From: Rhizaria sp. SCN 62-66
Taxonomy: Eukaryota
Assembly (NCBI GenBank): GCA_001724265.1
Contig: MEDY01000186.1
Span: 1-55,309 of the forward strand
DNA: 55,309 bases
Direction: 5' to 3'
Shown one piece after another: positions 8,501 to 45,137 of the stretch. Position 1 is the stretch's first letter. Each line of letters opens with the position of its first letter. A model generated the notes under the pieces. It did no database searches, was not told where the DNA came from, and worked only from the letters and a program-made list of their open reading frames with translations. A program made the translations under genes and the position numbers.

Positions 8501-8827
8501 TCGCCGCTGCGGCACCCCGTGGTCGCGGCCGAGGAGCTGGGCTCGGTTGAGCTGGCCGTGCTCTACGGCGACCCGCGCGAGTTGTTCCCTAAGGAAACCA
8601 CGCGCATCGCGACTGAAGAACAGTTGGAAATGGTGATGGCTTCGCTTAAGGGCGACGCGGCCAAGGATGTGGTGACGGACTCGGCCATGAACGCGCCGCC
8701 CGGGATGCCCACCGAGACCGAGGGCGCTGCTGCGAGCAACACGAGCGCGGATGCGTCGGCTGAAGACGCTGAGGAGGCGGAGGCGGCGGATGCTGCAGCG
8801 ACGCCGACTCAAAGTGCGACTCAGTGA
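5592..8827 (+). CDS. Hypothetical protein with mitochondrial-presequence-like N-terminus; intron 6520-6707; in-frame TAG 7070-7072 (~1015 aa if TAG is sense)
   Basis: Arg/Ser/Ala-rich, acid-poor N-terminus (MFRALLQGSTRAAVSRPILSRR). Phase-1 intron ACAG|GTACGC...CTGTAG|GC joins ORF 5592 to the frame of ORF 6575, which is in frame with ORF 7106-8827 across one TAG in a CAG run. Ends TGA. Confidence 0.7.
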
Positions 8828-22200: not shown

Positions 22201-23856
22201 ATCTCACTCACGGCCTCACCTTCGTCCAAGCCCACCGCCACCGGCACTCAGCGTGTGGGTGCGCGTGCCAATGCATTGGCCGCCAGCCAGGGTCTGGAGC
22301 TGCGGCATACTCTTGTGCCACCACGCACTGATTTCTCGCAGATGGACCGCGAAGAGGCGTTGTACGAGCAAGAACAATTGCGACAGCAGCAAAAGCAGCA
22401 TGCACAACAGCAGCAGATGCGCGCGCAAGACGACGGCGTTGATCTCGAGATGAGCGACGACGACAACAACGGTCTTGACGAAGAGGACGAGGACGAGCAG
22501 GATGACGACGATTACGATGAGAATGAGACTGAGGAGGAAGTGCAGCTGCGTACGCTGCGGCGCCGTCTTACGGCCACGCTTTTCCGCGGATACACTGCTG
22601 CGCGGCAGACTGCAGTCGAGGACGCGATTGTGCTTGTGCGCAGCGCTAACAACATTGTGCGCCGCCAGTTGACACTTGCTGTTATTACTGAGCTGCGCCA
22701 CTCACTGCCGATGGATCCGCTCTCAGTCTCTCTGCGCGCGCGTATGAATCGCGTACACATGCGCAACACTGGCCACCTCGTGCTGTTTTCTATCATCTCG
22801 GCGCTCGCGGCCGCCGGTGTGCGCGTGCGCCGCCGCTGGGATCCCGCAGTGCTGGCCGAGGTCGGGCTTGGCTCTTCCCCGGTGCACCCTGCCGTGGCTG
22901 CTGCGCGCGACGAAGCCGACAAACTCCGCGCTGAGATCGCTGCGTTGCGCAACAGTGCTGGGATCGGTGCCGATGCCGGTGCTGGTGGCGCCGCGGCCGT
23001 TGAGGCGTGCGCGTGTTATGACACGAGTCTCAACCTTGCGCGCCTGCTCACAGTCACCCGCACCCGCGCGCGCCACCTGCGCGCCGCTGCAGCCGGCAAC
23101 GTCATCGCCACCGCCGCAGCCGCTGCGCTCGAGTCCGAAGAGCAAACCCTCCGCGCCCGTGTCGCGCGCGAGCTCGCCGAAGAAGAGTTTGTTGCGCTCG
23201 ATCCCCGTTGGTTGCTGCGGCCCGGCGACGACAAGAGCGCGCGCGAGCCCGCAGCGAAGACTGCGATGGAGGACTGGCTCTCCATTCCCGAGTCGCTTGC
23301 GGCAGATGTTGACGACGCTGCGTACGCGCTGCCCGCAGCCGCACCCTCTGGTGGCTCTGGCGCTACTGGCGCTGGAACGGCGAGGGGGCAGCAGACGTGG
23401 GCTGCGGGTGCTGTGAATGCCAACACTGGCTACGGAGACCCGTATGGCGGCGCATCGCTCGCGGTGTTTCCCCCCGCACAGTTTCCGTATGCGCAGCAGA
23501 CGCAATCCCAGGCCATCACGCAACAACCGACGCAATCTGCAGCTGCGTTCGGAGGCGAGCACATCTCGATGGCGCAGCTGACAGACACGCAGGCGTTTGC
23601 GCGCATGCACTCGACGAGTGACAGCGCCGCTGCAGTGGGCCATGAGAACGGTGGTCCCGTGGTGAAGCGCAGCAGGCTGTCTGGAGCCAATGACGGTGGA
23701 CCTCTCGCCGCTGCAGCATCCGCCGCTGCGACAACAGGCACAGGCCAAACTTCTGATGTACAAAACGACGAACACGCGAACATCAATGCGTACTCTATCG
23801 AACATGAACACGGTGCCAGTCTTGAATCGCAGTACGAAGGAGACGAAGCATGGTGA
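13222..23856 (+). CDS. RecQ-family DNA helicase (BLM/Sgs1-like), ~3544 aa, uninterrupted ORF
   Basis: FRPLQ (motif 0), [85 protein letters not shown] and RQC zinc motif CRR...C...CDNC within ~17090-18880. First in-frame ATG at 13222. Ends TGA. Confidence 0.95.
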
Positions 23857-27711: not shown

Positions 27712-28032
27712 GCCCTAAAAAGCGCGGTCTTATCGCATATCAGGTGTCTTACTGACTGAAAACGTAGCAGAGGTCTGTTTAAGAGCGTTTGCTGTGCCGA
27801 CCGTTCCTCAATTGCAACGGTTCGACCAGGTCACGAGGCGGAGTCTAAAAGAAGGATTTTGCAAGATAACAGGAAAGAATACCATTGTAATTAAGTGTCG
27901 TTGTCTTAAATTGTGTTTTATAATTCCTACACGGCAAGACACCGCAAACAACGGATTTTATAAGAAAAATCTTGTTCACTGAAAAGACTTGACTCTCCAA
28001 GTCTGCCCGTGGTGATATTTTGAGAACCCCAC

Positions 28033-28077
28033 CCCCCCAAAGGGACGGGGCTCTCAACCCCCCGAAGGGACGGGGCT
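28033..28077. repeat. Short direct repeat CCCCCC(A/G)AAGGGACGGGGCT x2 in an intergenic region
   Basis: Two near-identical ~20-bp copies about 25 bp apart. Confidence 0.75.
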
Positions 28078-28445
28078 GTCGAAGAATGCGCAACTACAAT
28101 GTATGGGGAGATTAGATGTAGACGTAGAATTTAAGGAGATATATGATGTTTATATGTAAGGATACCAAGGAATATGCTCAATAATGCTGTATATCGAAGA
28201 CTGTATTGAGGGGAAATAAAAATCAAGTTTGTACTTTCCAAGACGTGGAGATCGAAGTGGGCTAACTTTGCAACTGAATACGGACGCTTGGGATTGTCCA
28301 GAGTTCATTATTTGTATATGCCATGAGACTAATAGAGATAAAACGTTATCTTACCATTTATCACAACGAGAACTCTTCATAATCTCTCATACGCCATCAC
28401 GTGTTCCTTCCTTCGCGCCTACATCTCAGACCCGCTTCTGCTTGG

Positions 28446-28889
28446 ATGTCTGTTCTAAAGCGCTACACGCAGCTCCCAACCCACCTCGTGCACATCGGCC
28501 GGCTTCCGGTCTCTCTGCGCGTGTTCAACCCGGCAAAGCGGTCCTGGGACCTGAAGCTGCACGACGGTAAGGTGCTTCCGATGAAGGCCGACAAGTACGT
28601 CGAGCCCAACGGCATGTCGATGCGGCCGCCCAAAAGCGAGAAGATGCGCCACACCGTGAGCACGTGGTAGGGCAACGAAGCGCGCGTGTACTTCCTCTAC
28701 GAGGGCTTCCCCATGCCCGAGGGGCTGGTGCTGGTGCACGAGCACACGGACCACTACTCGGTGCAGACGTCGGAGCCGTGCACGCTGCCCGAGCTCAACG
28801 CCAAGATCACTGCGCTCCTCCAGAGGGCCTCGTCGCAGACGCCCGAGGAGTTTCTCCGCCCGCTCACCGAATCAGATCAGGACAACTAA
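28446..28889 (+). CDS. Tse2-like ADP-ribosyltransferase toxin-family protein (147 aa) with in-frame TAG 28668-28670
   Basis: ORFs 28401-28670 and 28686-28889 share a frame. Joined, they show PNGMSMRP...EGxPxPEGLVLVHEHTDHYSVQ..PCTLPELN, as recalled for eukaryotic Tse2-type ADP-ribosyltransferases. Ends TAA. It would be a pseudogene under the standard code. Confidence 0.75.
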
Positions 28890-29665
28890 GCCAGCGGCGC
28901 GCGAGCGAACGAGCTAAAAAGCCAGCGTCCCAGCGACAAGAGACGATGGACGTAATAAAGATACCCTTTTGAGCTAAACTGGAACAAGTGTATTGGTGTG
29001 GTCTTCTCGTAATCTGCTGCAGCCAGACTATTTTATCGGTCCAGTTGCTGCCTTGCCAGACACTTCTTCAACAGTTTTATATCTGCTCCTAGTTTGTGTA
29101 ATATCCCGGTCAACTAAGGTGTCGGATGCTGTCACGCTGCGTAACAGACGGTGACAGCGTCTTGCGCTATGACAACCGGTGTGAGTCTCAATAGCAATGA
29201 AGTACATTTTCTAGGGATTGTCAGATCATCTAACCATAACCTTTCAATAAATGTCCAAATTGACGTACTTGAGATCTCCTGCGTCTTCCTACTGATATGA
29301 TTTACTTCGCAGCTGCACACAGTCACGTTGCTGCGAGCTTGGATTCCAAAGCTTTGTGCGTGATATTCTTCTTCATATCTTGTAGTTTGCTGTTAATATT
29401 TTGAATGCATCTGAGTAGGCGTATGGTTGTTTCGAAATATCTTTCTTCTGTTATTGGTAATATGGGAGTCTGCTCACTCGTCGAGAGAGTGATGACGTGG
29501 CGGGGTGACTCCCTTTTCTGCGAGAGTTTTCTGGGTTGTGTGATCGTAATATTTTGTTTGTGTTTTTGTGTGCTTTTTCTTATTATTTGGTGAAGTGCTT
29601 TTCATTATAAATCCTGATTTATGGTCACCACAGACGAACATTGTGTCTTCAAATTTGTTCTTACC

Positions 29666-30560
29666 TTACTCCAGGCCAAATGCCTTGCAGTGCTGTTCCA
29701 ACTTAGAGCCTCCAAGCGCTTTGGTGTTAATGTCTGCGGTCATCTCAGCCGTGCCAATGTCCTTGACATCGATGCCGTAGTGGTGGACTTGGTTGCGCAC
29801 AGCGCATTTCTTACAGATGTCGATGTGCTTGGTCCACCCGTGGTGCTCGGGGTTCAGGATCGTGTCGATGGCGCTCTTGTTGTCGAGGCAGAGTGTGATC
29901 GGCGCCGTCCTGCCCGTGATCTTGGCGTGAATCGGTTGCGCCCAGAGTGCGTCCTTGGTTGTCTCAGCTGCCGCGACAAACTCAGCTTCAGTGCTGGACT
30001 CTGAGACGAGAGTCTGCTTGCGCGTGAACCAGCTGAATGGGCTGCCACAGTATAGCACCACGGCGCCTGAGGTCGACCGCTTGTCAACGACGTCGCCCGC
30101 CTAATCCGAGTCTGAGAGTGCCGTAATGGTCTCGTTCCCGTTTGAGCGGCCGGCCAGATGAAGCTTGTAATGCTTGGTGCCCTTGAGGTAGCGCAGAACG
30201 CGCTTCTGTGACAGTCGAATGGTCTTGATCGTGCCAGTTTATGAGGTGCTGGAGATATCTGACTACGAACGCAATGTCACTGCGACCGCAGCGGACCAAA
30301 TAGCCAAGCTGAGCAGTGAGACGCGTGTAGTTGTCTTTGCTGTTGTCGTTGTAGCTGATGTCGTACTCGTAGTCGCGGTGGGCGTCGGGGCTGGTCGCCG
30401 TTGCATCGCCGCCAGGTGAGCTGCGCTGCTGCGCCGCGACCGCCGCGATGACGGGCAGCTTCCTCTTCGGCTGCATTGGCGTTGGCGCGGTGTTGGCGTT
30501 GCGCATGCCCCACTCAGCCAGCAGGTCATCGACGACATGCCTTGATCGCGTCCACCTCAC
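29666..30560 (-). mobile_element. Degenerate Ty1/copia LTR retrotransposon pol fragment (RT C-terminus plus RNase H)
   Basis: GMRNANTAPTPM, RSDIAFVV, KRVLRYLKGT, SDSD*AGD..DKRSTSG, SWFTRKQTLVSESSTEAEFVAA, DNKSAI, TKHIDI, ADINTKAL. Frameshift near 30205 and TAG at the conserved Trp (30101-30103). No gag, integrase or LTR recognised. Confidence 0.93.
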
Positions 30561-30841
30561 GACGTTGCCATTTGAGGCGAGACCGACTGGTGTTGCGATA
30601 CGGCCAGTGCCACTGGAACTGCCGCTGTAGCTGTGGGCATTGCCAAGTCGTGAGATCAGAACTTAGCTAGTCAATTTAGATATCGCCAAACAATGCGCAT
30701 TCGTACTTATAACTCGGTGTTGCAAGGTATCGATTAAAATCAATGTCTATAGTGTCTATTGAATAGAAAATAAACTCTAAATAACCATTCAAGCTTCAAT
30801 AATCAAATAATATCTCGTGCTGCAGGCACCATCACATTATC

Positions 30842-33800
30842 TTACTCCAGCATCATCGGGTCGTCCACGATGGGCAGTCCCATAAGCGAGAGCAAATACC
30901 CCTGCCGCACCACATGGCGCCTACACTGGCCCTGCGGCGCTACCATAGCGTCTTCTTCGCGCAGATCCACCATCGTCGCCGTCTTCGCGCCACCGCTGGA
31001 CACGCTGTTGCTGCTGTTGTTATTGTTGTAGCTGCTGTTGCAAGCGCGGAGACGTGCGAGTAGTTCTTCCTCCACAGCGGGCCGCGTGAGCCACCAGTGC
31101 CACATCGCGCTCAGCGACGGCGCGCGCACCAGCCGCGGCTCACGGTCCCACTCGCTGCCGCAGTCGCGCTCGAAAGCATTGCCGCCATGAGCGGGGGCGA
31201 GGTGGATGCTGTTGTGGCTGCCCGCGGCGCTGCCGTGGCCGAGTGACCGCACGTGACTATGCGCGTGACTGTAGGTCGACGCGTGTTCGGAGCCTTCTTC
31301 AATGCAGCTCAGGCGGCGGTCCACGCTCGCGTTCAAGTCCACCGCGACAGAGACATTCGTACTCGAGCTGCTCTTTGCCTCATCCTCGTAATCCGTCGCG
31401 CTCTTGGCCTCAGCAGTGGCGCTCTTAGCCTCAGCATCAGCATTCATGCCAACAGCGTCAGTAGAGCCGTATGACTTGTCCATCGCCGCACTGGGCGCAA
31501 TTGCAGTGTTCGACACGTTCGTAGCCACAGCGGCAGCCGCGGCGGCAGCGGCAGCAGAGGCAGCAGCAGACGCGGCGGCAGCGGCCCTGTGCGCTGCGAG
31601 CGCGGCCGCCGTAAGCCCCCGCAGCGCGGCGCGCTCGAGCCCCCAGTGCATTCCGGCGACCGCGAGCAAGTACGCGGCGGCCAGGAGCGGAGAAGTCTCG
31701 CCGGACAGCGCGGTCGCGGCCCACGCGGCCGACAGCGCGCCCTCGCCCGCGGCGGAGTCGCCGCCAGAGAGCGCAGTGGGGAGGCCGACGGTGCGGAGAG
31801 ACAGTGACAGCGCGAGGGCGTTGTGCAGCGCGTGCAGCAACACGGCGGCGAACCAGCCGGCGCCGAAGAGCCCCACGCGCAGCAGCGAGAAGCTCCGCGC
31901 AGCGACAGGCTCCGCCGCCGCGCTCATCCCGTACCCACTGTAGGCGCTTCCGCGGGGGCTGTGGGTGCGGTGGGCGGCGGCGTGGGAGAGCAGGTTCACG
32001 GGGGCGCGCTTGGCGGGAGGCGCGAAGCGCTGCAGCGCGGCGGGCAGCACCACCGTCGCGGGCGGCATCGGACCGGCCACGCGAGCAATATTCGCGTTGG
32101 CGACAGTATTCGTGTTGCTTTGGATGCGCGCAGCGGAAGTGGTGTCGACGACCGAGATAACGCCACCAGCAGCGGGAGAAACCGCGCCACGCGCCACGGC
32201 AACGGTTGCGACAGCGGCGGCGGCGGCCAGCGCGGCGTCCGCAGCGGCCGCGGCAAGCGCAGTCTCCGGTGGACAAACAGCCACGGAGCCGTCCGCAGCG
32301 ACGACGACGCACGCACTGCGCGCCGTTGCGGCCGCGAGCTCTTCCTCCTGCTCCGCACTCAGCCGGCCCAGCTGCGCAGAGGCGGCGGAGCTCGCGGTCA
32401 CAGCCGCAGTAGGCGAGAGCGCGGGCCTGCGCGCGCCGGCGACCGCGAAGAGCGCGTACACGATGAGCGTGCGCAGCCCGAGGAGCGTAAGCGCAAACAC
32501 CGCCAGCAGCGCGAGTGCCAGGGCGGCGACGGCGGTGCCGGCCAGCGCCGCCGCGGCCGTGGCAGTCGCGGGGGACACGGCCGCCGCGCCGCCGCTGGGC
32601 AGGATGGCGGCGAGCAGACTCGCGTACGTCGCGCGAAGCAGCGGCGCGGCGGCGACTGGGCCGGGGGCGTAGCCCAGCGCGAGCGGGTGCGACGCGTGCG
32701 CGGCCGGGACAAGCCAGGGCGAGAGCAGCAGGGGCGGCAGATGCCACAGCAGCCACGCTGTGGTGACGGCGCGCGACACCCAGAGCACGGGCGACACGGC
32801 AGCGGTCTTGGCGGCCGCGCGCGGACCGCGGGTGTAGGAGTGGAACGCACGCAGAGCAAGCGGGGTGAGGAGGGCGGACCAGGCAAGCTCTTCCCAGGCG
32901 GCGAGAAGCAGCCACGACACGGGCGCAACGGGCGCAGCGGTCACGAGCTCGTCGTCGCCCACGGCCACACTCGCGGTCTCGGCACCGTCGTTCTTGACGT
33001 GACTAGCTGTCGTGGACACGGAGACGGCGGTGGGGAGTCCCCATGTATCGTCCCACAGCAGACCCGCAGTCGCGGCAACGCCAGCCTCGCCGGCAGCGGC
33101 CAGCGCGCCCTTGGGCACCGCGCGCGCCGCCGCCGCGACCGCACCACGGACACGGGCGCTCACTGAGCCATGGTGGTCGCTATCCATCGTGCCGTCGCTG
33201 CCGTCTGCCGCTGGAGCAGGACTGAGAGCGCGGTCAAGCCCCAAGTGGCGCGCGGACCGCTCGTACACGGCCTGCGCACCCGCCACACTAACGAACCCGC
33301 TGCTCTTGGCATTCACCGTGCCACCGGTCAGGCTCGAGTCAACACCGGCGTCAGAGCCGGCGGGGTCGAGAAAGACCGTGGGCGCGGCGGGGAAAACGGC
33401 GCACGCGGGGGCAAGCGCGCACTGGAGCGGGATGACCGTGAGCGCGAGCAGCAGCGCCAGCAGCGCGGCCGAGGCGAGCGCCACGGTCAACGGGCCCGCG
33501 CGGCGCGGGAGCAGACAGCGCAGCCAGCGCGCGCCGCGGGAGGACACTGCTGGCGCGGGCGCGTGAGACAGTAGCGGGTGCGGAAAGGTGACAACGCACG
33601 CGCCTTGAGCGCCAACGTCAGCAACCTTCGCGTTTGCCTCAGCCTTAGCCTCGGCCTCGGCCTCGTCATCGCCGTTGTCGTCGCTGTCGCTGCCACAGTC
33701 CGGGTCGGCATTGTCGTGCACGCGGCGCACGCCACGGGACAAACGCTGCGGCCCGCAGCAGAGGCAGGGCGCGACCTCCGCGAGCGTCAGCAGGCCCAGC

Positions 33801-34834
33801 CGCGCAAACGCCGCCCAGCACCGACGCCCGCGGCCTCTCCCGGCAGCCGAGCCCGCCGCGACAGCGGCCTGACCGCGGCCGCGGCCGCCGCCGCCGCCAC
33901 GGCGACCGGCAGTGAGTGGAGGATGACGCCACATTAGGCCGGTGTCGCGCTCAGCGGCCGACGCTGTGTGCTTGCTATAGCTATAGCTACTGCTGCTGCT
34001 GCTGCGGGAAGGTGAGAGCGAGACTGATGGCGCGGCGAGCGCGCGTGCCAGCGCAGTACGTGACGGCAGCAGCGAGCCGCCCGCGAGCCGCGTGGACACG
34101 GCCGTGGCGGCCGCGTTGCCCGCACAGGAAGCCCCCGCGGCCGGGGACGCGCCGGGAAGCGGCGGCAGCGCAGCGGCGGCCTGGGCCCACGTGGCGGCAC
34201 CGGCGCCCAGGGGCGGCGGCGACGGCGGCGCCGAGGGGGGCAGGAACATGAGCGCAGACGGAGGTCGCGCAACAGCACCTGCAGTGTGCGCGTGATGACT
34301 GTGACTATGACTGTGAGCGGTGGCGGGGCAGGAGGCGTCGCAGACCGCGGCACCGCTGCTGTTGCGGCGCGCGAGCTGCCGCATGCGCCCGCTCCCATCG
34401 CGGTACGAACCGCCATTGACGGCAAGGGCGTCAGAGTCCGAGTCCGAGTCGCCCTCCGCCGGCGCCAGCAGCAGCACGTCCTGCCCGTGGCTGCCGCGGT
34501 CGCCGCCGCGAGTGCGGTGTCGCGAGGACGCGGGCACGAGCTGCGGACTAGCCGCGGCCGACGTCCCTGCGCTGAAGCCAGAGCCGAGGCCGTATGCGTA
34601 GCTGCTGAATAGCGAGACGAGGGCCGAGTCGTCGAACAAGGCCGCCGCGGCCACGTCGTCGTCGTAGTGCGCGCTGCCGCTGCCCCGAGGACGGCGGTGC
34701 AAATTCGCGCCTGCGACCGCGCCCGCCGCGACTGCGCTGTTGCTGCCAGCACCACTGTTGTGGTGAAAGTGGGCCGTGTGCGGCGCGTAGTCGTCGTAGT
34801 CGTTGTAGTAATACCCAGCCGCAGCGGCGACGGA

Positions 34835-34875
<41 letters not shown>

Positions 34876-36316
34876 AGCCGTGGTAGCCGTACGTGTGCGA
34901 CTGTAACTGCGACTGGTACAGACGCCGCGCGTCCCTCGTCGCCGCCGCCGCAGAGGCGGAGGACGCCGCGGTGCCGGACTGGGGGCGCGCGACCGCGACG
35001 GAGACTGCGACGGCCGCGGCAGTCAGCGGGGACCCGCCCCAGTACTATGTGCCGAACGGGTCGTCACGGCTCCCCACGGTCACACCGCCGTCAGCGCCCC
35101 GTGGCGCGGTGGCAACGGGGCCGCCGGGCGTCGTCACAGCGGCACCCGGTGTATGTGTCAGCGCAGCTTGCTGGTGATACAGCGGGTGGTAGGGCGACGT
35201 CCGCAGCGGCGCAGAGGACGGGGTGAGTACCCCCTTAGACGGGGACGTCGTCGCCGACGGGTCCGCGGGCGCGGGCGGGGCGGGCGGAGGCGGCAGCGGC
35301 CGTGCCTCGGTTTTGCCACGTGAAGTCCCCTTTGTCGACGAAGACAGTGAAACAGAAAGACGCATCGACGGCGACTGCACCAGCTGCACTGGCGCACTGT
35401 CTTCCTCTTCGTCGTTCACATTCAACGTCGCATTGCGACTGCCGCCACTTCCACCGTCGTAATCGTCGATGTTGTCGTTGTAGTTGTTTTGCTCGCGAAG
35501 TTGCAGCGCGGCGTGCTGTGCCGCCAGAGGGTCGCCCTTCTCCTTCTGCACCGCACTCGCGTCCGCACTAACGCTCACAGTCGCGGGAACACCGGCGGCA
35601 CTGCTTGCGGTCTGTGCAATGTCGCGCTGCTGCTGAGCGCGAAGGGCGTCACGCGCGGCGCGCACTGGCGGTGACACTGACACCGCATCCGCTGCGGCGG
35701 CGACGACGTTATCCGCGGTCTTCGCGAGCGGAGGCGGCAAATTGCGGCCATGCGCCGCAGCAGCAGCAGCAGTAACAGGCGCCTTGGGCGCGGAGACTGC
35801 AACGGCAAGCGCGAGGAGCGCCGCGATGAGAGGCGTGCAGAGGTACAACACCTGGCTGTAGCGGCCAAGTACGTGCGCCCACCACGGCGCCGCCGCTGCC
35901 GGGGCCGCCGGCAACGCTTCCGGGGACTGCGCGCCGACAGGGGCGTCCGAGAGCCAGGCCAGCAGCGCGAGCGCGAGCGCGGCCTGGGTCGCGAGCGCGG
36001 CGGTGGCGAGGTATGCGACGCAAAGCGGCGAGCGTGAAAGGCAACGGCAGCGGCCGCGTAGGAGGGGCGCGTGCGAGATCACGTCTGAAGGGAAGGGCTG
36101 ATGCGCGGAGAAGAAGGTCGACGGAAGCGAGGATTCGAGTGGCGCGTCGGAGGAGACCGTTGAGGTCGAGCGAGGACGCGAGGGAGAGGAGGGCAGCAGC
36201 GAGGCCGACTCGCCGCTGCTGCTGCTGTGAGCGGGGGCCATGGTCGAGTAGTCGAAGTAGGCGGAGCGGAACGAAGGCTGCGCGGACTGCGCGCCGTAGT
36301 CCGAGCCGCCAAACAT
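30842..36316 (-). CDS. Large multi-pass membrane protein with CPBP/Abi (CAAX protease type II) motifs; in-frame TAG 35045-35047 (~1824 aa)
   Basis: ORFs 35045-36409 and 30842-34702 share a frame, and the 114 codons between them are stop-free. Motifs WEELAW, WLLWHLP and AAVLLHALHN correspond to CPBP EExxxR, FxxxH and HxxxN. First ATG at 36316. Ends TAA. Confidence 0.7.
34838..34873 (-). repeat. (GAC)12 microsatellite encoding poly-Asp
   Basis: (gtc)12 on +. Reads as D12 in the frame linking the two ORF halves. Confidence 0.9.
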
Positions 36317-37030
36317 TGAGGAGTGGTCCGAGCTTATCAGTGCTTGGTGTGCCAGAAAAATCCGTTTAGGGGTCGGTCTAGCTTGCTTAAAAGCAGAGGG
36401 CGGTTGCAAGGATGATGTGAGATGACACGTCGGTAAACATCAGTTGCCCAGTGAAAGCAACGTAAAATGCAATATAGCAAATAATATGAAGTGGAGATCG
36501 GTCGGGTTCAGCTGTTGATAACATGAATACAGTGGCACAGTTGCTTTATCAAAAGATATGCCGAGATTCATCAACCGCTGTCGCTCGTTCTCGGCTTCTG
36601 CTTGTCGGGCCAGTCTGGTGGGGCTGGGGGGGGTCCTCAAGAATCCGAACATGATCTCCCCCAAACGATCGTCACTTGGCTGCTGCTTGTGGTATGTTAG
36701 TCATGCAATGTTTGGAACATACGTAGTTTAAGTGTGCATCTACCTGAGTTGATCTTGGTCCTACTGGCCCCTCTCTTAATTCAACGTGCTGCTGAGTACA
36801 CAACGATGCATTCAATTTCATGGAACAAGTCGACGTAATCGCAAGACAAAGTTGGGACGCGTTTTATCAATCAAAGCATTCTTTTACAGATGACGCCGCT
36901 CTTGATTTCTTTGTATTTTGCTCTCCAGCCTCAGTAGACCTAGCGTGTTCAACTTCCTCACAGCTCATCGCAGTAACCGTTGCTGACTTCGTAAACACAG
37001 CGTGCTCTCCACGCCCCGTCCGCCCGCGCC

Positions 37031-40000
37031 ATGGACCTCTCCCTGGACGTGGTCCACGTGACGGACTTTCCACTCCCGCTAACGCTCACTTCCTTGATCG
37101 ATTCTGTGGGCAGCACCTACTCCATCGCTCGCGCGCCCGTCACCACGTCCTCGTCCTCGGTCCCCGGCTCCGCCGCCGCGGGCCCCGCGTCCGCGGCGGC
37201 GTCACTCTCGAGCACGGCGCTGCTGGACGCCGGCGCCCGCGCGCGCCGCCGCCGCCTGGCACCTGTGCCGACGACGCACCTCATCTTGCCCCCGCGCGGC
37301 ACTCCCTACCACTCCCCCGCGTCGTCCTCGTCCTCTTCTTCCTCAGCAGCCTTCCCCGGCGCCGGCGCGGGCCCCCAGCCTTTTTCCTCCACGGCCTCCG
37401 TCGCCGCCGGTCTGGCAGGCTGTCCCGTGCTTGTCGGTCGCTCTGACGGCTCTATCGTGCTCATCCCTCCCGCCGCGCTCGCAGCACACGCCGCCTACCA
37501 GCGCCGCCGCCAAACCCACAGCCACACCAGCGCCGGCAGCGCCGGCAGCGCGGTCAGTGGAGCTGCCCCCATGCCCCCGCCGCCGCCTCCGCCGCCACCA
37601 CCAGTGGTTTTTGTGCTCCGCGGCCACCACGGGCCTGTGTTTTCCCTCGCATACGCGCCCGACCTCGGCCCCTCTGCGCCGCCAGCTGCCCACGCGCCCC
37701 ACGCCAACCGCGTCAACGGCAGCAGTAGCAGCGGCAGCAGCGGCAGCGGCAGCGGGTCTGCATCCGCGGCGCTGGGCGCGACGCGCGGCGCGGGCGGGCT
37801 CGTCGCCGGTGTGCTGTCATCGTCCGACCCTCTGTCCCGGTACACGCACGCCTTCTCGCTCTCCACCACGGCGGGCGCGCCCACTGCGGCCGCGGCGGCG
37901 GGGGCGGCGGCGGCGGCCAGCGCGGCGGCGGGCACCCCGGGCGCTGCAGCGGCAGCCGCAGCCGCAGCGGCTGCGGCGGCCGTGGATGCCGGCGCCGACC
38001 CAGGTTTGTTCTCCTCCTCATCCTCATCTTCATCAACTGGCGGCGGCGGCGGAGGCGGTGTCAGTGGCTCGGGGTGGGGGTTAGTCCTCTCGTGCGCCGC
38101 TGATCGTACTGTGCGCGTCTGGGATATCACGCCGTTGCTCAACATGCCTCTTGCGGCTGCCACGGCCGCGGCCACAGCGGCGGCCGCGGCAGCTGCGGCC
38201 ACCTCCTCCGGCAGTTCAGGCTCAGGTTCAGGTGGTTTGAGCTCGGGCACCAGCGGTAGCTTTGCTCTACGTGGTGGCAGCGGCTTTGCTGGCGTAACTG
38301 GCGCGATTCGGGCCGGCCGCAACGCTCTCAGCTGCGCGCTCGGCGGCGCCGCGACGCCCGCCGTCTTGGCCGCGGACGCTGACCCCAGCACTTGCGTGCA
38401 GACCCTCGTCGGCCACTCGGGCGCCGTGGTTGCAATGAGCTACATCCCCGCCTCGTCGGTGCTGTCCTCGGCCGGCGCGGCGACGGCTGCAGCCGCCTCG
38501 GGCGCGGGCGGCGCCGCGGCGGCCGGACTGGCGGCGACCGCGCTGCTCGTCACGTGCAGCACAGACGGTAGCAGCATCCTCTGGGCGCCCGTCCCGCCCA
38601 CGCTGCGGGGGCCGATGCTGTACCCCTGGTTCTCGCCGCTGCAAACGCTGCAACACGCCGCCGCCTTGCCCGCCGCGACTGCGACGACGACGCCCGCTAA
38701 ATCAGCCGCCGCAGCCGCTGGCAAGGCCGGCACGATTACTGTGTCCGGCGCCAGTGGCAGCAAAGGCGGGAGCGCCGCCGGGCCGTCGCCGCTGTGGTGT
38801 TTCCCCGCGGCTGTCGCGCCGGCGTGGCTTGTGTCGGCCACCCCGCCCCCGACGCTGCCGCCTGCGCTGGCCGCCGCCGCCGCGGCCACCGCAACGGCCC
38901 CGCAGCCGCTGCCCGCGCCTCAGTTGTCGTTCTACCTCGGCGACTCGACGGGGCTTGTTTCGCTCGTGACGGCGACGGTGCAGTGGGCGCGCGAGCGTCT
39001 CGTCTTCGCCAACTCGATCCACGCGCGTGGGAGCAACAACCTCCCTGGCGGTGCCGGAGTCGGGGCAAGCGGCGGACTGACTGCGGACGGCGCGGCGGCC
39101 GGCGCGGCGGCGCGGCACTGGGAGGGCGGTGCGCTGCCGGTCACCCGCCTCCTCGCCGCGCCCGCGCCCGCGCCAGTGATCACCACGTCAGGCACCGTGT
39201 CCGGCGCTGCATTGGCTGGCGCGAGCCCGCCTGGCGGCGGCGACAAGGCCGACGCCGACTCTACCAGCCCCGGCAGCGCTGGCGGCAGCACTGGCGGCGG
39301 CTCTGGCGGCGGCGGCGGTGCGGTGAGCGCGGGACTGGGCGCGTGGCTGCCCTCGCTCGCCTTCGCGCTGCCGCCGTGCGCCGGCGGCGTGCGGCGGCTG
39401 CACGCGCTGGGCGTCGCGTCGATCCTCGCTTTCCCGGAGCACGGAGTGTTCGTCTCCCTCTCGTTCGACCGGACATGCGTTGTGCGCTCGCTCGCAGTCT
39501 CCATTCCGTCCCCCGCCTCCTCGGCGTCCTCCGCGTCCGCATCCACAGCCGCTGCGGCGGCGGGACTGCTGGCGGGCACGGGCCGCGCGGGCCGTACGCC
39601 GCGGACCGGCCCCACGGGACTCGTGGGCGGCCAGGTGCTACTGACCGTGAGCAACCCTCTAAGGTGCCGCTACACCGCTGCCACTATCGTCACGTGCACC
39701 ACTCCAGCCTCCTCCTCCTCGTCATCGTCGTCTGCGTCCTCGTCTTCTGGGGGCAACGGTACCGGTGGCGGACTGGGCGTGCCGCTGCTGCTGCTTGGCG
39801 ACGAGCGCGGGTCCCTGCAGGCGTGGGACCTGGGCCGCGAAGAGTGCCTCTGGGCGTGCTCCATTGCCCCGCTCCTCGCGCCCGCACACGCCAGCGCCAG
39901 CGCGACCGCCGCCGCGGCCGCCGCATCGGGAGCAGCGCGGTCCGTCGTCGCCGCGTCCTCGGGTGCGGCCGGCGCGGGCGCGGGGGTCAGGCTCGTTGAC

Positions 40001-43000
40001 GCATCGCGCCCCGCCGCTGCCGCCGCGCCCGCCACCCGCGGCGCCCGCGGCCGCAAGTCCGACCCGTCGTCCTCATCCAGCAGCAGTGGCGGCCGCGAGG
40101 TCATCGTTGCCGACGCACCCCCGATCCTGCATCTCTCCACCGCCCCCGCGCGCTCCGGCGGCGGCCACCTCGTTCTCGCCACCGTCGGCCCCCGCCCCTC
40201 CGCGGCAGCGGCGGGCGGCGCGGCCGCGGCTGCGGGCGGTGGCGGCGTCGTTGTGCTCGCTGCGCGGCTACTGCCGCGGCCGCAGCGGCTGTCGGGCCAC
40301 CGCGACGCCGTCATCGCGCTTGCTCGGCTAGTCACACCCTCATTCAACTATCTCTCGGTTCTTGCCGCAGCCGCAGCCGCGGGCACGCGGGCCGTCACCG
40401 CGAGCGCGAGCGCGAGTTGCGGTAGCGGTGGCCACGGAGGACGCCGGGCCCGCGCCAGCGCCAGCGCCAGTGCCAGCGTCGCGCCGCATGAGGACGACGA
40501 CGAAGAGGCCGCTGCGAGCGAGCGCCGGCTCACCACGACAGCTGCTGCGGCGGCGGCGGCTGCAGCGGCGAGCAGTGCCATCGCGGCTACTGGCACGGGG
40601 TCCGCGGTCGAAGTAGCGCTCTGCTCGGCCTCGTTCGACGGCACAGTGCGCGTGTGGGACCCCGCCGACCACGCGTGTCTGGGCGCTATTGTCGTGCGAC
40701 CGCGCACGGGCCATGCGCCTGTCGCGGCCCCCGCGGCGGGCGGCGGCGGCGGCGGCGCGCGCGGCGCGGCGGCGGGCGGCGGCGCGGGGGCCATTGCGCC
40801 GAGCACGCTCACGCTGGGGTTGCTGCGCGCCTTCCTCACTTCGCCCGGGCCCGCGCAGGCCGCCGCCGCCGCCGCCGGAGGTGGTGGTGGCAACAGCAGC
40901 AACGGCAGCAGCGGTGGCGGCGGCGGCGGCGGCGGCAACGGCGGTGACGTGGCCGAGGGCGGCGCGGGCGTGGGCTCGTTCTCGCTCCGCCTGGCCCCGC
41001 CAACCGCGGACGATAACGAGGTGCAGTGCCTCGCCGCGCTGCCCCTCTCGCCGCTTCTGGTGACCGGCCACGCCAACGGGCACGTGCGCGTGTGGCACGC
41101 CGAGTCGGGCGCCTCGCGTGCCGTCGCGGCCCACGCCAACACCGTCACGGCGATGGCCGTGCTGCCGTCGCTCGCGTCGGCGCACGCTGAAGCCACCGCC
41201 GAGGCCGTCGCCGCGGCGTGGGCAACGGCGGCGGCCGCGGGCGCCGGCGCGGGCCCGCTGCGCGCGCGGCTGCCGGCCGCGGCCGCACTGCACGCGCGCA
41301 TCGCGAGCATGGCGGCGACGTCCGGGGTCGCCATGGCCGCGCTCGCCAAAGACACGCTCGCGCTGACGACCGCCGCGGCGGCGCCTGCTGCTGCTGCTGC
41401 CGCGGCTGCCGCGACTGCCGCGGCGTCCTCCGCCTCGACGACCACGACTGCGAGCGCGACAACGGGTCCTAGCGCCGGTGTCGCGCTGTCGCAGTGGCAG
41501 GCGAGCGTGAGCGGCTCGATGCACGGTGACTTGCTGCTCACCGTCTCCCACGACGGTTTGCTTGCCGTGTGGGCCATGCAGCCGCCGCCGCAGCCGACGG
41601 CCCCGATCTCGGCCTCCGCCCCGGGCCTCAGCACGCAGCAGCAGCAGCAGCAGCAGCAGGGGCGCGGTCGCGTGCTTGGGCTGACCCGACTCGCGGCCGC
41701 GGCTGCGGGCGGCGGCAGCGGCGGCAGCGGACACGGCCGGCTCGTCATCGGCCGCCCGACCGCGGTCACCGTCGCCGTCCCCGCGCTCACTGTTGCCGCC
41801 ACGGGTGCCACCGGTGCACTTCCGCAGACCGGCACCGGCACTGGCTCCAGTACGGGCGCAGGCAGTCACGCGGCCCGCAACCGCGCGCGATATGACGACG
41901 GCGAGTTCGGTGGCCCCGCGAGCACTGAGACTGAGCGCCGCGTCGCAGTCACGGTGACGGCGCGCGCACCAGAGCTGTGCGTGCGAGTCGCGGCGGAGAA
42001 CGTACTCTGCGTTGCGACGTGGCAGCGGTCCAACTGGCTCGGCTGGGGACTCGATGTTGAGAACGCACACGCGATTGCGACATCCGCCGCCGCAGCCGCC
42101 GCGGTCACCGGCGGTTCTGCCGATACCTCCGCCACTGCCACCGCCGCGGCCTCTGCGTCTGCAGCGGCGGCCCGGTCGCGCGCGCGCGCCGACGGCAGCG
42201 CAAGCGCGTTTAGCCCGTCATCCCGCCGCAGCGGCGGCCGCAGCGGCGCGCGCGCGTTCGGCTCAGCGTCCGCGGCAACGGCAGCGGCCGGGGGACGGGA
42301 CCTGCCGTCGTGGGAAGGCTGGGTCGCGACAGGCTGCGGCGCTGGCGTGCTCACCGTCTTCTCCCTCCGCGCGCAAGCTGCGATCGCACGGTTGAACCTT
42401 GCCGCCGCGCTGTCGGAGGTGGCGCTCATCGCGCTGCCCGCCGCCGCGCCCGGCGCGCTCCCACTCGGCGCACAGTCGCTCGCACTCGCGGTGGCCGCTG
42501 ACTGCGGTGGCGCGAACAGCAAACGGGGCAGCAACGTGACTGGACTGCGAGTGCGGATCGTCCAGGCGCAGCGCCTGCTGACCGCGGACGCTGCCGCCGA
42601 CGCCGACGCCGCCGCTGCCGTACAGGCCGAGGCTACCGCGGCGACGACGGCGGCGGCAGCTATGTTCGGCTTCGACGCCGAGGCTGGAGCGGACCCGGCG
42701 CGGGCTTCGCTCGCCGTCACCGCGGTCGCCGCCGATGGGTACATAATCCTGGCAGGCACGTCCCGCGGCGCGCTTGTCGCCGTCGACGCGCTCTCGCGCC
42801 GCGCGGTGTCCTGGGCGCTGCCGCAGGCGCTGTTGTTGTCGCCCGCTGACTATGCCACGCACGCGCAGTCATATACTGGCTACCACAGCGGGTCCGGCGC
42901 CGCCAGTGCCACCGCAGCTTCCACGGCGCCTGTTTCGGTCGCGACGGCGACAGCGGTGTCTGCGGCCGCGTTGGCGAGTCTGCTGCACGAGAGCACCGGC

Positions 43001-43612
43001 GCCGACGCCGGCTCCGAGGTCACCGGGCTCGCGTTGGTTCCAGCGGCCCTGGGTGCGCGCGCGGCGGGGCTGGCGGTCGCGAGTCTCCGGGACGGCCGCG
43101 TCGTCGTGTGGGATTACACCGCTGCGCGCGTGCTGCGTGTCGTCGACTACAACTGCTCGGATGCAGCGGTCACTCTCGCGGCCGCGGATGGCCGCAGCGG
43201 CGGCGGGGACGCGGGTGCGCAGCAACAGCAGCAGCAGCAGCAGCAGAGTGCTGGCGGACGGTGGACGTGGACCGGCGTCTCCATCTGCCAGTGGGCGCGC
43301 GCCGTCTTCCTCTCGGCTGAGAGCGGTGATGTTGCTGTTGTTGACATCGCCACTCTTGTGCCTGCGGAGCTGTTGTCGTCGGGCGCTGCAGTCGTCACCG
43401 CTGCGCCAGCGATGTCTGCAGTGCCAGGCGCTGTTTCAATGACTGCGGGCGCATTTGTCGCACGGAATGACGAAGAGCGCGCTTGTGAGATGGCCGAGAT
43501 GGAGGAGATGACTGCGGCGCTGGCGGAACTGGTGAAGAAAACGGAGCGAGAGCTGGCGGTGCTCGAGAGTAGCTCTACAAGTGTTCTGAAGCATGTGACC
43601 ATTGCTGTTTAA
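37031..43612 (+). CDS. WD40-repeat protein, 2193 aa, with long Ala/Gly/Ser insertions
   Basis: LRGHHGPVFSLAY, LSCAADRTVRVWD, LVGHSGAVVAM, LVTCSTDGSSILW, LSGHRDAVIAL, SASFDGTVRVWD, LVTGHANGHVRVWH, ASLRDGRVVVWD. Ends TAA. Confidence 0.88.
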   Translation: MDLSLDVVHVTDFPLPLTLTSLIDSVGSTYSIARAPVTTSSSSVPGSAAAGPASAAASLSSTALLDAGARARRRRLAPVPTTHLILPPRGTPYHSPASSSSSSSSAAFPGAGAGPQPFSSTASVAAGLAGCPVLVGRSDGSIVLIPPAALAAHAAYQRRRQTHSHTSAGSAGSAVSGAAPMPPPPPPPPPPVVFVLRGHHGPVFSLAYAPDLGPSAPPAAHAPHANRVNGSSSSGSSGSGSGSASAALGATRGAGGLVAGVLSSSDPLSRYTHAFSLSTTAGAPTAAAAAGAAAAASAAAGTPGAAAAAAAAAAAAAVDAGADPGLFSSSSSSSSTGGGGGGGVSGSGWGLVLSCAADRTVRVWDITPLLNMPLAAATAAATAAAAAAAATSSGSSGSGSGGLSSGTSGSFALRGGSGFAGVTGAIRAGRNALSCALGGAATPAVLAADADPSTCVQTLVGHSGAVVAMSYIPASSVLSSAGAATAAAASGAGGAAAAGLAATALLVTCSTDGSSILWAPVPPTLRGPMLYPWFSPLQTLQHAAALPAATATTTPAKSAAAAAGKAGTITVSGASGSKGGSAAGPSPLWCFPAAVAPAWLVSATPPPTLPPALAAAAAATATAPQPLPAPQLSFYLGDSTGLVSLVTATVQWARERLVFANSIHARGSNNLPGGAGVGASGGLTADGAAAGAAARHWEGGALPVTRLLAAPAPAPVITTSGTVSGAALAGASPPGGGDKADADSTSPGSAGGSTGGGSGGGGGAVSAGLGAWLPSLAFALPPCAGGVRRLHALGVASILAFPEHGVFVSLSFDRTCVVRSLAVSIPSPASSASSASASTAAAAAGLLAGTGRAGRTPRTGPTGLVGGQVLLTVSNPLRCRYTAATIVTCTTPASSSSSSSSASSSSGGNGTGGGLGVPLLLLGDERGSLQAWDLGREECLWACSIAPLLAPAHASASATAAAAAASGAARSVVAASSGAAGAGAGVRLVDASRPAAAAAPATRGARGRKSDPSSSSSSSGGREVIVADAPPILHLSTAPARSGGGHLVLATVGPRPSAAAAGGAAAAAGGGGVVVLAARLLPRPQRLSGHRDAVIALARLVTPSFNYLSVLAAAAAAGTRAVTASASASCGSGGHGGRRARASASASASVAPHEDDDEEAAASERRLTTTAAAAAAAAAASSAIAATGTGSAVEVALCSASFDGTVRVWDPADHACLGAIVVRPRTGHAPVAAPAAGGGGGGARGAAAGGGAGAIAPSTLTLGLLRAFLTSPGPAQAAAAAAGGGGGNSSNGSSGGGGGGGGNGGDVAEGGAGVGSFSLRLAPPTADDNEVQCLAALPLSPLLVTGHANGHVRVWHAESGASRAVAAHANTVTAMAVLPSLASAHAEATAEAVAAAWATAAAAGAGAGPLRARLPAAAALHARIASMAATSGVAMAALAKDTLALTTAAAAPAAAAAAAAATAAASSASTTTTASATTGPSAGVALSQWQASVSGSMHGDLLLTVSHDGLLAVWAMQPPPQPTAPISASAPGLSTQQQQQQQQGRGRVLGLTRLAAAAAGGGSGGSGHGRLVIGRPTAVTVAVPALTVAATGATGALPQTGTGTGSSTGAGSHAARNRARYDDGEFGGPASTETERRVAVTVTARAPELCVRVAAENVLCVATWQRSNWLGWGLDVENAHAIATSAAAAAAVTGGSADTSATATAAASASAAAARSRARADGSASAFSPSSRRSGGRSGARAFGSASAATAAAGGRDLPSWEGWVATGCGAGVLTVFSLRAQAAIARLNLAAALSEVALIALPAAAPGALPLGAQSLALAVAADCGGANSKRGSNVTGLRVRIVQAQRLLTADAAADADAAAAVQAEATAATTAAAAMFGFDAEAGADPARASLAVTAVAADGYIILAGTSRGALVAVDALSRRAVSWALPQALLLSPADYATHAQSYTGYHSGSGAASATAASTAPVSVATATAVSAAALASLLHESTGADAGSEVTGLALVPAALGARAAGLAVASLRDGRVVVWDYTAARVLRVVDYNCSDAAVTLAAADGRSGGGDAGAQQQQQQQQQSAGGRWTWTGVSICQWARAVFLSAESGDVAVVDIATLVPAELLSSGAAVVTAAPAMSAVPGAVSMTAGAFVARNDEERACEMAEMEEMTAALAELVKKTERELAVLESSSTSVLKHVTIAV

Positions 43613-43950
43613 ATCAAGTATTACGAGTTAAAGACAAATCGAACGTTACATATTGCAAACAACCCATACAATATATAGTATTATATTCCTGTGCTGCGAT
43701 CAATGTTGGTTTTTCATTCAAACTTATCTTGAACATGCCAGAATTTCATTTTTAACGTAACCTCACGTCTGAGGATGGTGGACTGGAGCGCTTAAAGAAA
43801 TGTGTTGTTTCCGCTACAGCGATCGTCAATTGGACTGTTTGTTTGTGGATTATAATTTTGTGTAATTTTGCATATTTTATGTTAATTAAATTTCATGAGC
43901 TAACATTTTATACTGTCTACCAACCTTGTTTTGATCCTGTAGTCGCACCT

Positions 43951-44634
43951 ATGCCCGCAGAGCCGACACCTGAAGAGATTGAGCAATGCCGACCGGAGGA
44001 CATTGTCTACGAGACCTACAAATGCGAGGAAGAACTTGCCGAGCTCACTGCTCTTGTTGACAAGGAACTTTCCGAGCCTTATTCCGTCTTCACGTACCGC
44101 TTCTTCGTCAACTACTGGCCCAAGCTGACGATCATCGCGCGCTTTAAGGGCGTTGCCGTGGGTGTCATCATGGCTAAGATCGAGCCCGACATCAAGAACC
44201 GCCGCCGTGGGTACATCGGCATGCTTGTCGTTGACCCCCGCTACCGCGGCAAGCGCATCGGCACCAACCTGGCGCGTCTGGAGATCGTCTCGATGCAGCA
44301 GCAGGGCGCTGACCTCATCGTGCTCGAGACCGAGTGTACCAACCACACCGCGCTCAAGCTCTACGAGCAGCTGGGCTTCGTGCGCTCCAAGCAGCTCAAC
44401 GCCTACTACATGAACGGTGCGAGCGCGTACCGGCTCAAGTTCTGGTGCCGCCACTACCCCGGACTAGGCGCGGACGGCGACTATGTGGAGGAAGACGAGG
44501 CGCGTACTGCCGCCGAAGCCGCTGCCACTCTGACCGCCAGCGCCGCCGCCGCCGCTACCGCGGCGACTGTCACGGACACGCATATGGCGCAGGATGCCAC
44601 CGCGGTCGCTGCGGAGCCCGAGGCTGCTAAGTGA
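43951..44634 (+). CDS. NAA30: N-alpha-acetyltransferase 30 (NatC catalytic subunit, Mak3)
   Basis: LVDKELSEPYSVFTYRFFVNYWP, RGYIGMLVVDPRYRGKRIG, IVLETECTN..ALKLYEQLGFVR.K.L.AYYMNG.SAYRLK. ATG 43951. Ends TGA. Confidence 0.95.
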   Translation: MPAEPTPEEIEQCRPEDIVYETYKCEEELAELTALVDKELSEPYSVFTYRFFVNYWPKLTIIARFKGVAVGVIMAKIEPDIKNRRRGYIGMLVVDPRYRGKRIGTNLARLEIVSMQQQGADLIVLETECTNHTALKLYEQLGFVRSKQLNAYYMNGASAYRLKFWCRHYPGLGADGDYVEEDEARTAAEAAATLTASAAAAATAATVTDTHMAQDATAVAAEPEAAK

Positions 44635-45137
44635 ATGTCAGCTGCATTCTCCGTATGCTGTTGAAACTGTGTGCTTGATGAGGTATGTTCCAAGTCTAAT
44701 CAGAGTATATATTTTCTGCATGTGGACTGTATTACTCTGTCTGGCCAATCGAGCGCTGGTGTTATTAACGTGAGTATGATTTATCTGGGTTGCTTGCATG
44801 ACAAAACAACAAACATGCGCAATGTTTCTTGCATCAGTGCTGTGCACATGAGCTTAACACAAACGCGAACCAAGGAAATACATTACACTCTAAACCTACT
44901 ATTATGTTCACAAAATATATGTATAACACACAGTCACACGACAGTTCCACGATATAGTAAGGGGTACTTGTAATAAGAAGAGATAGTGAGGCTTAAAAGA
45001 AAAATGACTTTTCTCGTCGCCTTCGCGCAACGCAAAGCGAGAGGTGATAAGAATGACAATCTTAACAGAGATTAAAAAAAAAAGACAAAAATGAAAACAT
45101 GCACATGCATGAACAGATAGCGCTAAGAGTCGCTATC

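Follow-up and report, generated by a model that had tools for sequence, protein, structure and literature searches.

Several eukaryotes translate UAG as an amino acid. In Iotanema spirale, UAG encodes Gln while UAA and UGA remain stops, and 126 genes were found to contain 204 UAGs (Panek et al. 2017, PMC5304391); UAG accounts for about 8% of the codons for Gln, Gln is the residue at 22 of 28 hyperconserved sites, eRF1 carries T32G, and the predicted machinery consists of a tRNA-Gln(CUA) and an eRF1 that is weak on UAG (PMC5304391). Its standard-code relative Euthynema has UAG at 4% of gene ends (PMC9161772). UAG is also read as Gln in the phyllopharyngean ciliates Hartmannula sinica and Trochilia petrani, and as Leu in three TARA MAGs (McGowan et al. 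2024, PMC11687900); in the two ciliates, UAG makes up 18.5–31.8% of Gln codons and occurs in 78–84% of genes (PMC11687900). In the rhizarian exLh (Sainouroidea), UAG encodes Leu, with 384 UAGs in 71 genes (PMC5304391), and UAG=Gln and UAG=Ser are reported for Protocruzia and Scotinosphaera, respectively. In yeast, premature UAGs beside Gln codons are read with insertion of Gln (Leslie et al. 2026 preprint, PMC13192750); this readthrough concerns all three stops, amounts to a few percent and needs the Gln context (PMC13192750). Our literature search, which covered few subscription journals, turned up no account of a GC-rich protist from wastewater in which UAG occurs rarely in frame.

Here, we analyse a gene with an in-frame TAG in a window that comprises the whole stretch of 55,309 nucleotides. 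We consider it rather probable that this organism decodes UAG genome-wide, most likely as Gln, and uses UAA and UGA as stops.

The interrupted gene and the RNA-library contig across its TAG

The window is eukaryotic nuclear DNA. Its coding regions are long and GC-rich (~70%), its spacers are AT-rich, and its GT-AG introns are T-rich and about 120–210 nt in length. The features discussed are collected in Table 1.

Table 1. Positions in the window of the features discussed in the text.
Feature	Positions	Strand	Details
In-frame TAG, codon 424 of the gene	35045-35047	-	context ACA TAG TAC
Whole intronless gene	30842-36316	-	1,824 aa with TAG as sense; final codon TAA
Upstream part	35048-36316	-	423 aa; ATG at 36316
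Downstream part	30842-35044	-	1,400 open codons until the TAA at 30842
(GAC)12 Asp run	34838-34873	-	aa 482-493
EE motif	32888-32893	-	aa 1142-1143, EELAWS (Ser at the Rce1 Arg position)
His 1192 in WLLWHLP	32741-32743	-	possible second CPBP motif
HxxxN motif HALHN	31820-31834	-	aa 1495-1499; matches PrsW weakly
Poly(A) RNA-library contig across the TAG (X5, record 20)	34888-35453		one contig; 0 gaps, 0 other letters
Second in-frame TAG	7070-7072	+	gene 5592-8827; opens the Gln run EQQH-TAG-QQQQQQQKQQH
Third in-frame TAG	28668-28670	+	gene 28446-28889; mid-domain of Pfam PF18648 (Tse2-like ADP-ribosyltransferase)
Multi-copy repeat	28103-28243		used to fetch contigs L001-L007
Decayed, frameshifted copia-type reverse transcriptase/RNase H remnant	29666-30600	-	
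TAG in the copia-type remnant	30101-30103	-	TGG in other copies

The initial annotation, made from the sequence, had placed a TAG between two ORFs of the same frame and a run of 12 Asp residues beyond it, and both are present: 423 and 1,400 codons flank the TAG, giving 1,824 aa in total. Translation of the minus strand around the codon gives DDPFGT before the TAG and YWGGSPL after it. It had also described a 1286-aa ORF lacking a nearby ATG; the frame is indeed open and the first ATG past the TAG is codon 221 of the downstream frame, with none in the preceding 220, but the start of that ORF is a TTG (codon 115) chosen in bacterial style. Its remark that this ORF lacks an AT-rich promoter gap was borne out by the base composition, as the GC content of the 150 nt past the TAG is 0.76, compared with 0.27–0.55 past 13 true gene ends. 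A scan for bacterial promoters and terminators yielded nothing, which is uninformative, since the models are bacterial and the host is eukaryotic.

The openness of the downstream frame is above chance: in the window's coding DNA, the longest of 1,354 shadow-frame stretches has 625 codons, and none reaches 1,400. The 220 codons past the TAG agree with host codon usage (r = 0.80, versus 0.47, 0.30, and 0.64 in three other frames), and their GC3 is 0.86. The truncated 423-aa upstream part is present in the protein database as P0126.

Four sequencing runs were aligned on positions 28000–44700 of the window. One of them, X5, is a poly(A) RNA run from study P3, while the run that holds most of the DNA, X1, comes from another study. 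The evidence from X5 consists of assembled contigs without strand, for which DNA carry-over is possible. With that proviso, the UAG is unspliced and unedited in one contig of this one library, which runs continuously for 157 and 406 nt on the two sides of the codon; among the pieces listed for the other three runs, none bridges the TAG. Seven of the eight X5 pieces listed lie in coding DNA and one in the copia remnant, and X5 depth in two largely non-coding bins is 0.28 and 0, which suggests that the pieces are derived from RNA. An assembly or sequencing error at the TAG was rejected, the X5 contig from a separate study being identical at the site. The TAG is thus common to a run of another study, though that run differs at other sites, and strain contigs over the downstream ORF carry substitutions and no gaps among the pieces listed.

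These data bear on two explanations in which the codon would not be translated as UAG. The presence of two genes, or of an intron removing the TAG, is very improbable. It is true that 56 frame-keeping GT..AG pairs are possible across the TAG and that the host does have in-frame, stop-free introns; however, the best candidates have a T-tract value of at most 0.24 and the top eight a GC content of at least 0.69, whereas six real introns have GC of 0.35–0.51 and T of 0.28–0.64, and none of the 56 pairs has a T-tract like that of five of the six real introns. The continuity of the RNA contig also speaks against splicing, and the missing AT-rich gap and ATG against two genes. The second explanation, A-to-I editing of the mRNA that turns UAG into UIG (Trp), like the restorative editing of fungal 'pseudogenes', has an equally slight probability. 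Such editing is reported in Fusarium, where it is stage-specific, and one sample could miss it (PMC10776026), but the X5 contig shows no deviating base there, Trp suits the Gln-run context described below about 550-fold less well than Gln, and Trp is absent from the only aligned column.

A single gene across the TAG is therefore the best reading and a likely one, as the initial annotation had proposed, given the lack of an AT-rich gap and of intron-like sequence and the unspliced RNA contig; neither an intron over the TAG nor a polyadenylation site past it with a separate downstream start, the two findings that would have spoken against it, was seen. Translation through the codon is inferred.

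Other in-frame TAG codons and the ends of genes

Two more genes of the window contain an in-frame TAG. The one at 7070 was first found by a scan in which TAG was read as sense, and it is followed by 584 open codons; exon 1 of its gene appears to join in frame via a T-rich intron at about 6520–6707, as judged from the sequence. The one at 28668 lies within a PF18648 match that spans it (E = 1e-23, model positions 21–136 of 137). The gene has four full-length homologues of 45–62% identity, in which the residues aligned to the TAG are K, R, K, and G; a 95%-identical database protein, P0002, found on eight contigs, ends at the same place as the TAG. Standard gene callers truncate host proteins, P0126 and P0002 being examples.

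Four TAGs would be counted if the one in the copia-type remnant were included, but this was rejected as a sense codon and left out of all counts, as it is a decay mutation that reads TGG in other copies. The element appears to be copia-type from its motifs; Pfam gave no match on the scanned piece, and searches with the piece yielded no viral contig and a single bacterial match, which was unrelated. More divergent copies occur in X2, X4, and X5. The Tse2-like gene sits between the multi-copy repeat and this remnant.

In 14,642 window codons, there are three in-frame TAGs, no TAA and no TGA, and the TAGs fall in 3 of 13 genes. The 13 gene ends comprise seven TAA, six TGA and no TAG. In-frame GC3 is 0.72–0.96 past the three TAGs and 0.26–0.54 past true ends, and a drop in GC follows all 13 true ends and none of the three in-frame TAGs; the Fisher test of 3/3 versus 0/13 gives p = 0.0018, with a criterion picked after the data had been seen.

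An unbiased scan treated all three stops alike and required 40 open codons on both sides. It considered 358 triplets (211 TGA, 95 TAG, and 52 TAA). For 18 of them, the frame was the best of the six both before and after the triplet, and seven of these 18 scored above 5 on each side. The top seven are the TAGs at 7070, 28668, and 35047, the copia site, and three TAA or TGA codons situated in more AT-rich intron or intergenic DNA.

The repeat was used to retrieve seven short metagenome contigs (L001–L007) that carry it at 95–99% identity and likely belong to the same or a very close organism; the search returned no viral contigs and no contigs of prokaryote genomes. In L006, a TAG immediately precedes a (CAA)n Gln run, and in L005, a TAG is flanked on both sides by homology to L004 (E = 5e-19); the stop scan did not pick these two. 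In L004, a TAG stands two codons ahead of a TAA that may be the true end. None of the four clear gene ends in L003, L005, and L007 is TAG; they are TGA or TAA.

That two more window genes and two related contigs behave alike, which the initial annotation had missed, points to the code of the organism rather than to readthrough specific to one gene. Readthrough as a general leak has nevertheless to be weighed: under a standard code, a near-cognate tRNA-Gln would decode a few percent of the UAGs whose context is weak or rich in Gln, and this would suffice for these alleles to be tolerated. A CAR codon comes next after three of the five host in-frame TAGs (7070, L005, and L006), and a leak of this kind would account for the rarity of TAG. 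We nevertheless judge it improbable. The target TAG and the Tse2-like one (TGG TAG GGC) have no Gln context, and no unusual 3' RNA structure was found at four sites (z = 0.25 at the target, and 1.24, −0.86, and 1.43). Leakiness also leaves unexplained both the absence of terminal TAG and the restriction of in-frame stops to TAG, UGA being the leakiest stop in the yeast study (PMC13192750).

The probable reading of UAG and the residue that would be inserted

The residue was assessed from the codons that follow. The tetrapeptide QQQQ stands directly after two of four scored TAGs (the three of the window and that of L006), and it follows 9.6% of Gln positions but at most 0.5% of positions of any other residue. 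The likelihood of two in four is 0.046 for Gln, 8e-5 for Trp, 5e-5 for Leu, 4e-5 for Glu, 2e-5 for Tyr and for Lys, and 6e-7 for Ser, so that all six alternatives fall at least 500-fold below Gln. If UAG is sense, the residue is most likely Gln. The initial annotation had left the choice between Gln and Leu; of the two, Gln has far better support. It should be noted that no TAG falls at a conserved Gln and that the sole alignable column, K/R/K/G, is compatible with Gln without showing it.

The TAGs seem to stand where Gln codons would, and the poly-Gln context would fit a CAG-to-TAG nonsense mutation equally well. The rival view holds that the code is standard and that the TAGs are ordinary nonsense alleles (from CAG or other codons) in dispensable genes, the target gene then yielding a 423-aa stub if it yields anything. 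Given host codon usage, nonsense mutation produces TAG most often: 63–69% of single-base nonsense routes lead to it (1,841 of 2,944, or 63%, with a codon set that includes one out-of-frame piece), so the all-TAG pattern is weak evidence alone. In-frame TAG is very rare, the copia TAG nearby demonstrably arose by decay and shares its repeat island with the Tse2-like gene, and the target protein has no homologue that would show a need for it. Against this, three of 13 genes would have to be dead, yet not a single frameshift, TAA or TGA occurs in the 14,642 codons of this repeat-rich DNA. The recurrence of the target TAG in a run from a separate study, despite differences elsewhere in its sequence, and the substitutions without gaps over the downstream ORF among the strain contigs listed, also argue against decay, as do the seven variants listed past the Tse2-like TAG, of which four are synonymous and none is a stop (P = 0.09). 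On balance, nonsense alleles are an unlikely explanation, if somewhat less so than leaky readthrough, but a serious rival.

The lack of terminal TAG proves little alone, as the standard-code Euthynema ends only 4% of its genes in UAG; if TAG ends 4–10% of genes, 0 of 13 is expected with P = 0.59–0.25. The case for sense UAG is cumulative: there is more than one in-frame TAG, frameshifts and other stops are absent, the TAG recurs in separate studies, and no gene clearly ends in TAG.

TAG is strongly avoided: it makes up 0.5% of the Gln codons (3 of 583), and about 109 instead of 3 would be expected if TAG and CAG stood in the ratio of TTG to CTG. As TAG is so small a share of Gln codons, decoding of UAG is probably inefficient or the change recent. 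Within the organism-wide reading, we give about equal weight to a reassignment that is complete though little used and to a stage of inefficient or ambiguous decoding. For the latter, we tentatively consider an early capture of the stop codon, in which UAG would have been dropped as a gene end and would be decoded as Gln inefficiently, in competition with eRF1; UAG would then be tolerated in linkers, loops, and poly-Gln runs, at a frequency of about one in 5,000 codons. If this were true, the organism would be a living nuclear example of the 'ambiguous intermediate', or of a codon only just captured, in a lineage for which no code change has been reported, and a sister species (77% protein identity), the source of P0007 and P0128, could date the change.

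Under organism-wide decoding of UAG, the mRNA of one intronless nuclear gene would keep UAG at codon 424, and ribosomes would read it as an amino acid, most likely Gln, while UAA and UGA terminate. By analogy with the predictions for Iotanema, this could involve a tRNA-Gln(CUA) derived from tRNA-Gln(CUG) and an eRF1 that binds UAG poorly. The tRNA search of the window found none, and Rfam gave no match in the window and seven loci (72.6 kb). The product would be a multi-pass membrane protein of 1,824 aa, swollen by low-complexity inserts.

The protein, the host, and comparison with described UAG codes

Two hydrophobic segments of the protein lie before the TAG (aa 98–118 and 156–176) and about five after it, near aa 942, 1135, 1171, 1261, and 1477, for a total of about 7–8. 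In Rce1, the catalytic residues are E140/E141, H173, and H227/N231 (PMC5874806). As in the CPBP proteases MmRce1 and PrsW, the motifs EE, His, and HxxxN occur here in the same order on hydrophobic segments (PMC5874806, PMC11980579); unlike in those proteases, the conserved Arg/Lys is Ser, the motifs are about 50 and 300 residues apart, and no profile matches the whole domain. A diverged intramembrane glutamic protease of Rce1/PrsW type, with its catalytic motifs all after the TAG, is therefore a possibility that we regard as doubtful; if it were such a protease, the whole active site would be missing from the 423-aa stub.

Pfam had no match for the whole protein or its halves, and PrsW was found in one of three hand-picked pieces with E = 4.4e-4 and 20.3 bits against a cut-off of 23.5. 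A custom PrsW profile scored 3.6 bits, a value reached by none of 200 shuffles, and a custom Rce1 profile −1.9 bits, reached by 5 of 200. HMMER with residues 90–1289 against 1.84 billion representatives returned only the window's own upstream ORF, the Atlas search with both parts gave no usable feature match (TM at most 0.39), the PDB sequence search gave none, and NCBIfam gave one chance-level match. The single-sequence structure model (pLDDT 48, pTM 0.29) is too poor for use, and a fold search with this low-confidence model retrieved generic helical bundles (best Z 8.7), with Rce1 absent among the best 50, which is uninformative.

Among the other genes of the window are those of an RCC1-repeat protein, an RRM protein, a RecQ helicase, a WD40 protein, a GNAT acetyltransferase, and an ABC-2 transporter, and we take some genes to be RPS11, RPL8, Dpy-30, RBMX2, and NAA30. 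The RCC1-repeat protein (1005–5000, minus strand) has a long coiled-coil tail; its relatives are full-length at 32–39% in eukaryotes, PF21773 is found in one homologue, and a 77% orthologue, P0128, comes from the sister species. The RecQ helicase (13222–23856, plus strand; 3,544 aa) and the WD40 protein (37031–43612, plus strand; 2,193 aa) are swollen by Ala/Ser/Gly/Gln-rich inserts inside their domains, in the style of the target gene. Two T-rich introns on the minus strand (about 11452–11622 and 53632–53817) are stop-free and keep the frame, and ORF callers read them as hydrophobic inserts. The coding DNA avoids ATA extremely (2 of 241 Ile codons) and also AGA, AGG, and CGA (36 of 619 Arg codons).

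Among the related contigs, L003 (1–4784) has intron-rich genes, one for a TPR-like protein and one for a Rab with CC-TGA at its end, compared with the intron-poor genes of the window. In L004 and L005, the repeat adjoins a family of AT-richer genes with codon use unlike that of the host (r = 0.38 for L004), possibly mobile cargo. The depth of the repeat in X2 reaches about 500, versus about 5 for long single-copy contigs.

In a quick tree of NAA30 with 50 of the 120 matches listed, the window groups with environmental and EukProt sequences only (98), and not with named fungi, green algae, oomycetes, Spongospora or Reticulomyxa. Sequencing runs containing words of the window come from bioreactors, wastewater, activated sludge, and a microbial fuel cell in five studies, and 4 of the 10 runs listed hold at least half of its words. 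The organism may be culturable, since several studies have it in runs from bioreactors, wastewater, and activated sludge. A paper on a giant-virus catalogue raises the possibility of unknown hosts with single-stop reassignments (PMC13524828); a free-living UAG=Gln protist would be the kind of host sought. If UAG is sense yet almost unused, the order of terminal UAG loss, new tRNA, eRF1 change, and codon spread would become directly testable.

Compared with yeast readthrough, which depends on Gln context, the target site has none. The window resembles Iotanema in having only UAG in frame, UAA and UGA as gene ends, Gln as the best fit, and UAG as the rarest Gln codon; it differs in that UAG is 0.5% of Gln codons with no conserved site, whereas in Iotanema it is about 8% with conserved Gln sites, and Iotanema is an anaerobic fornicate, whereas the window organism belongs to an unplaced GC-rich lineage. 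Likewise, the 8–32% of Gln codons that marks routine UAG use in described cases, a typical rather than defining feature, is far above the value found here. As in the phyllopharyngean ciliates, the change would concern UAG only, with UAA and UGA kept as stops; UAA ends most genes in those ciliates, while here UAA and UGA are about equal (7:6). With exLh, the organism would share a reassignment of UAG alone outside ciliates, but the Leu of exLh fits the window context about 1,000-fold worse than Gln.
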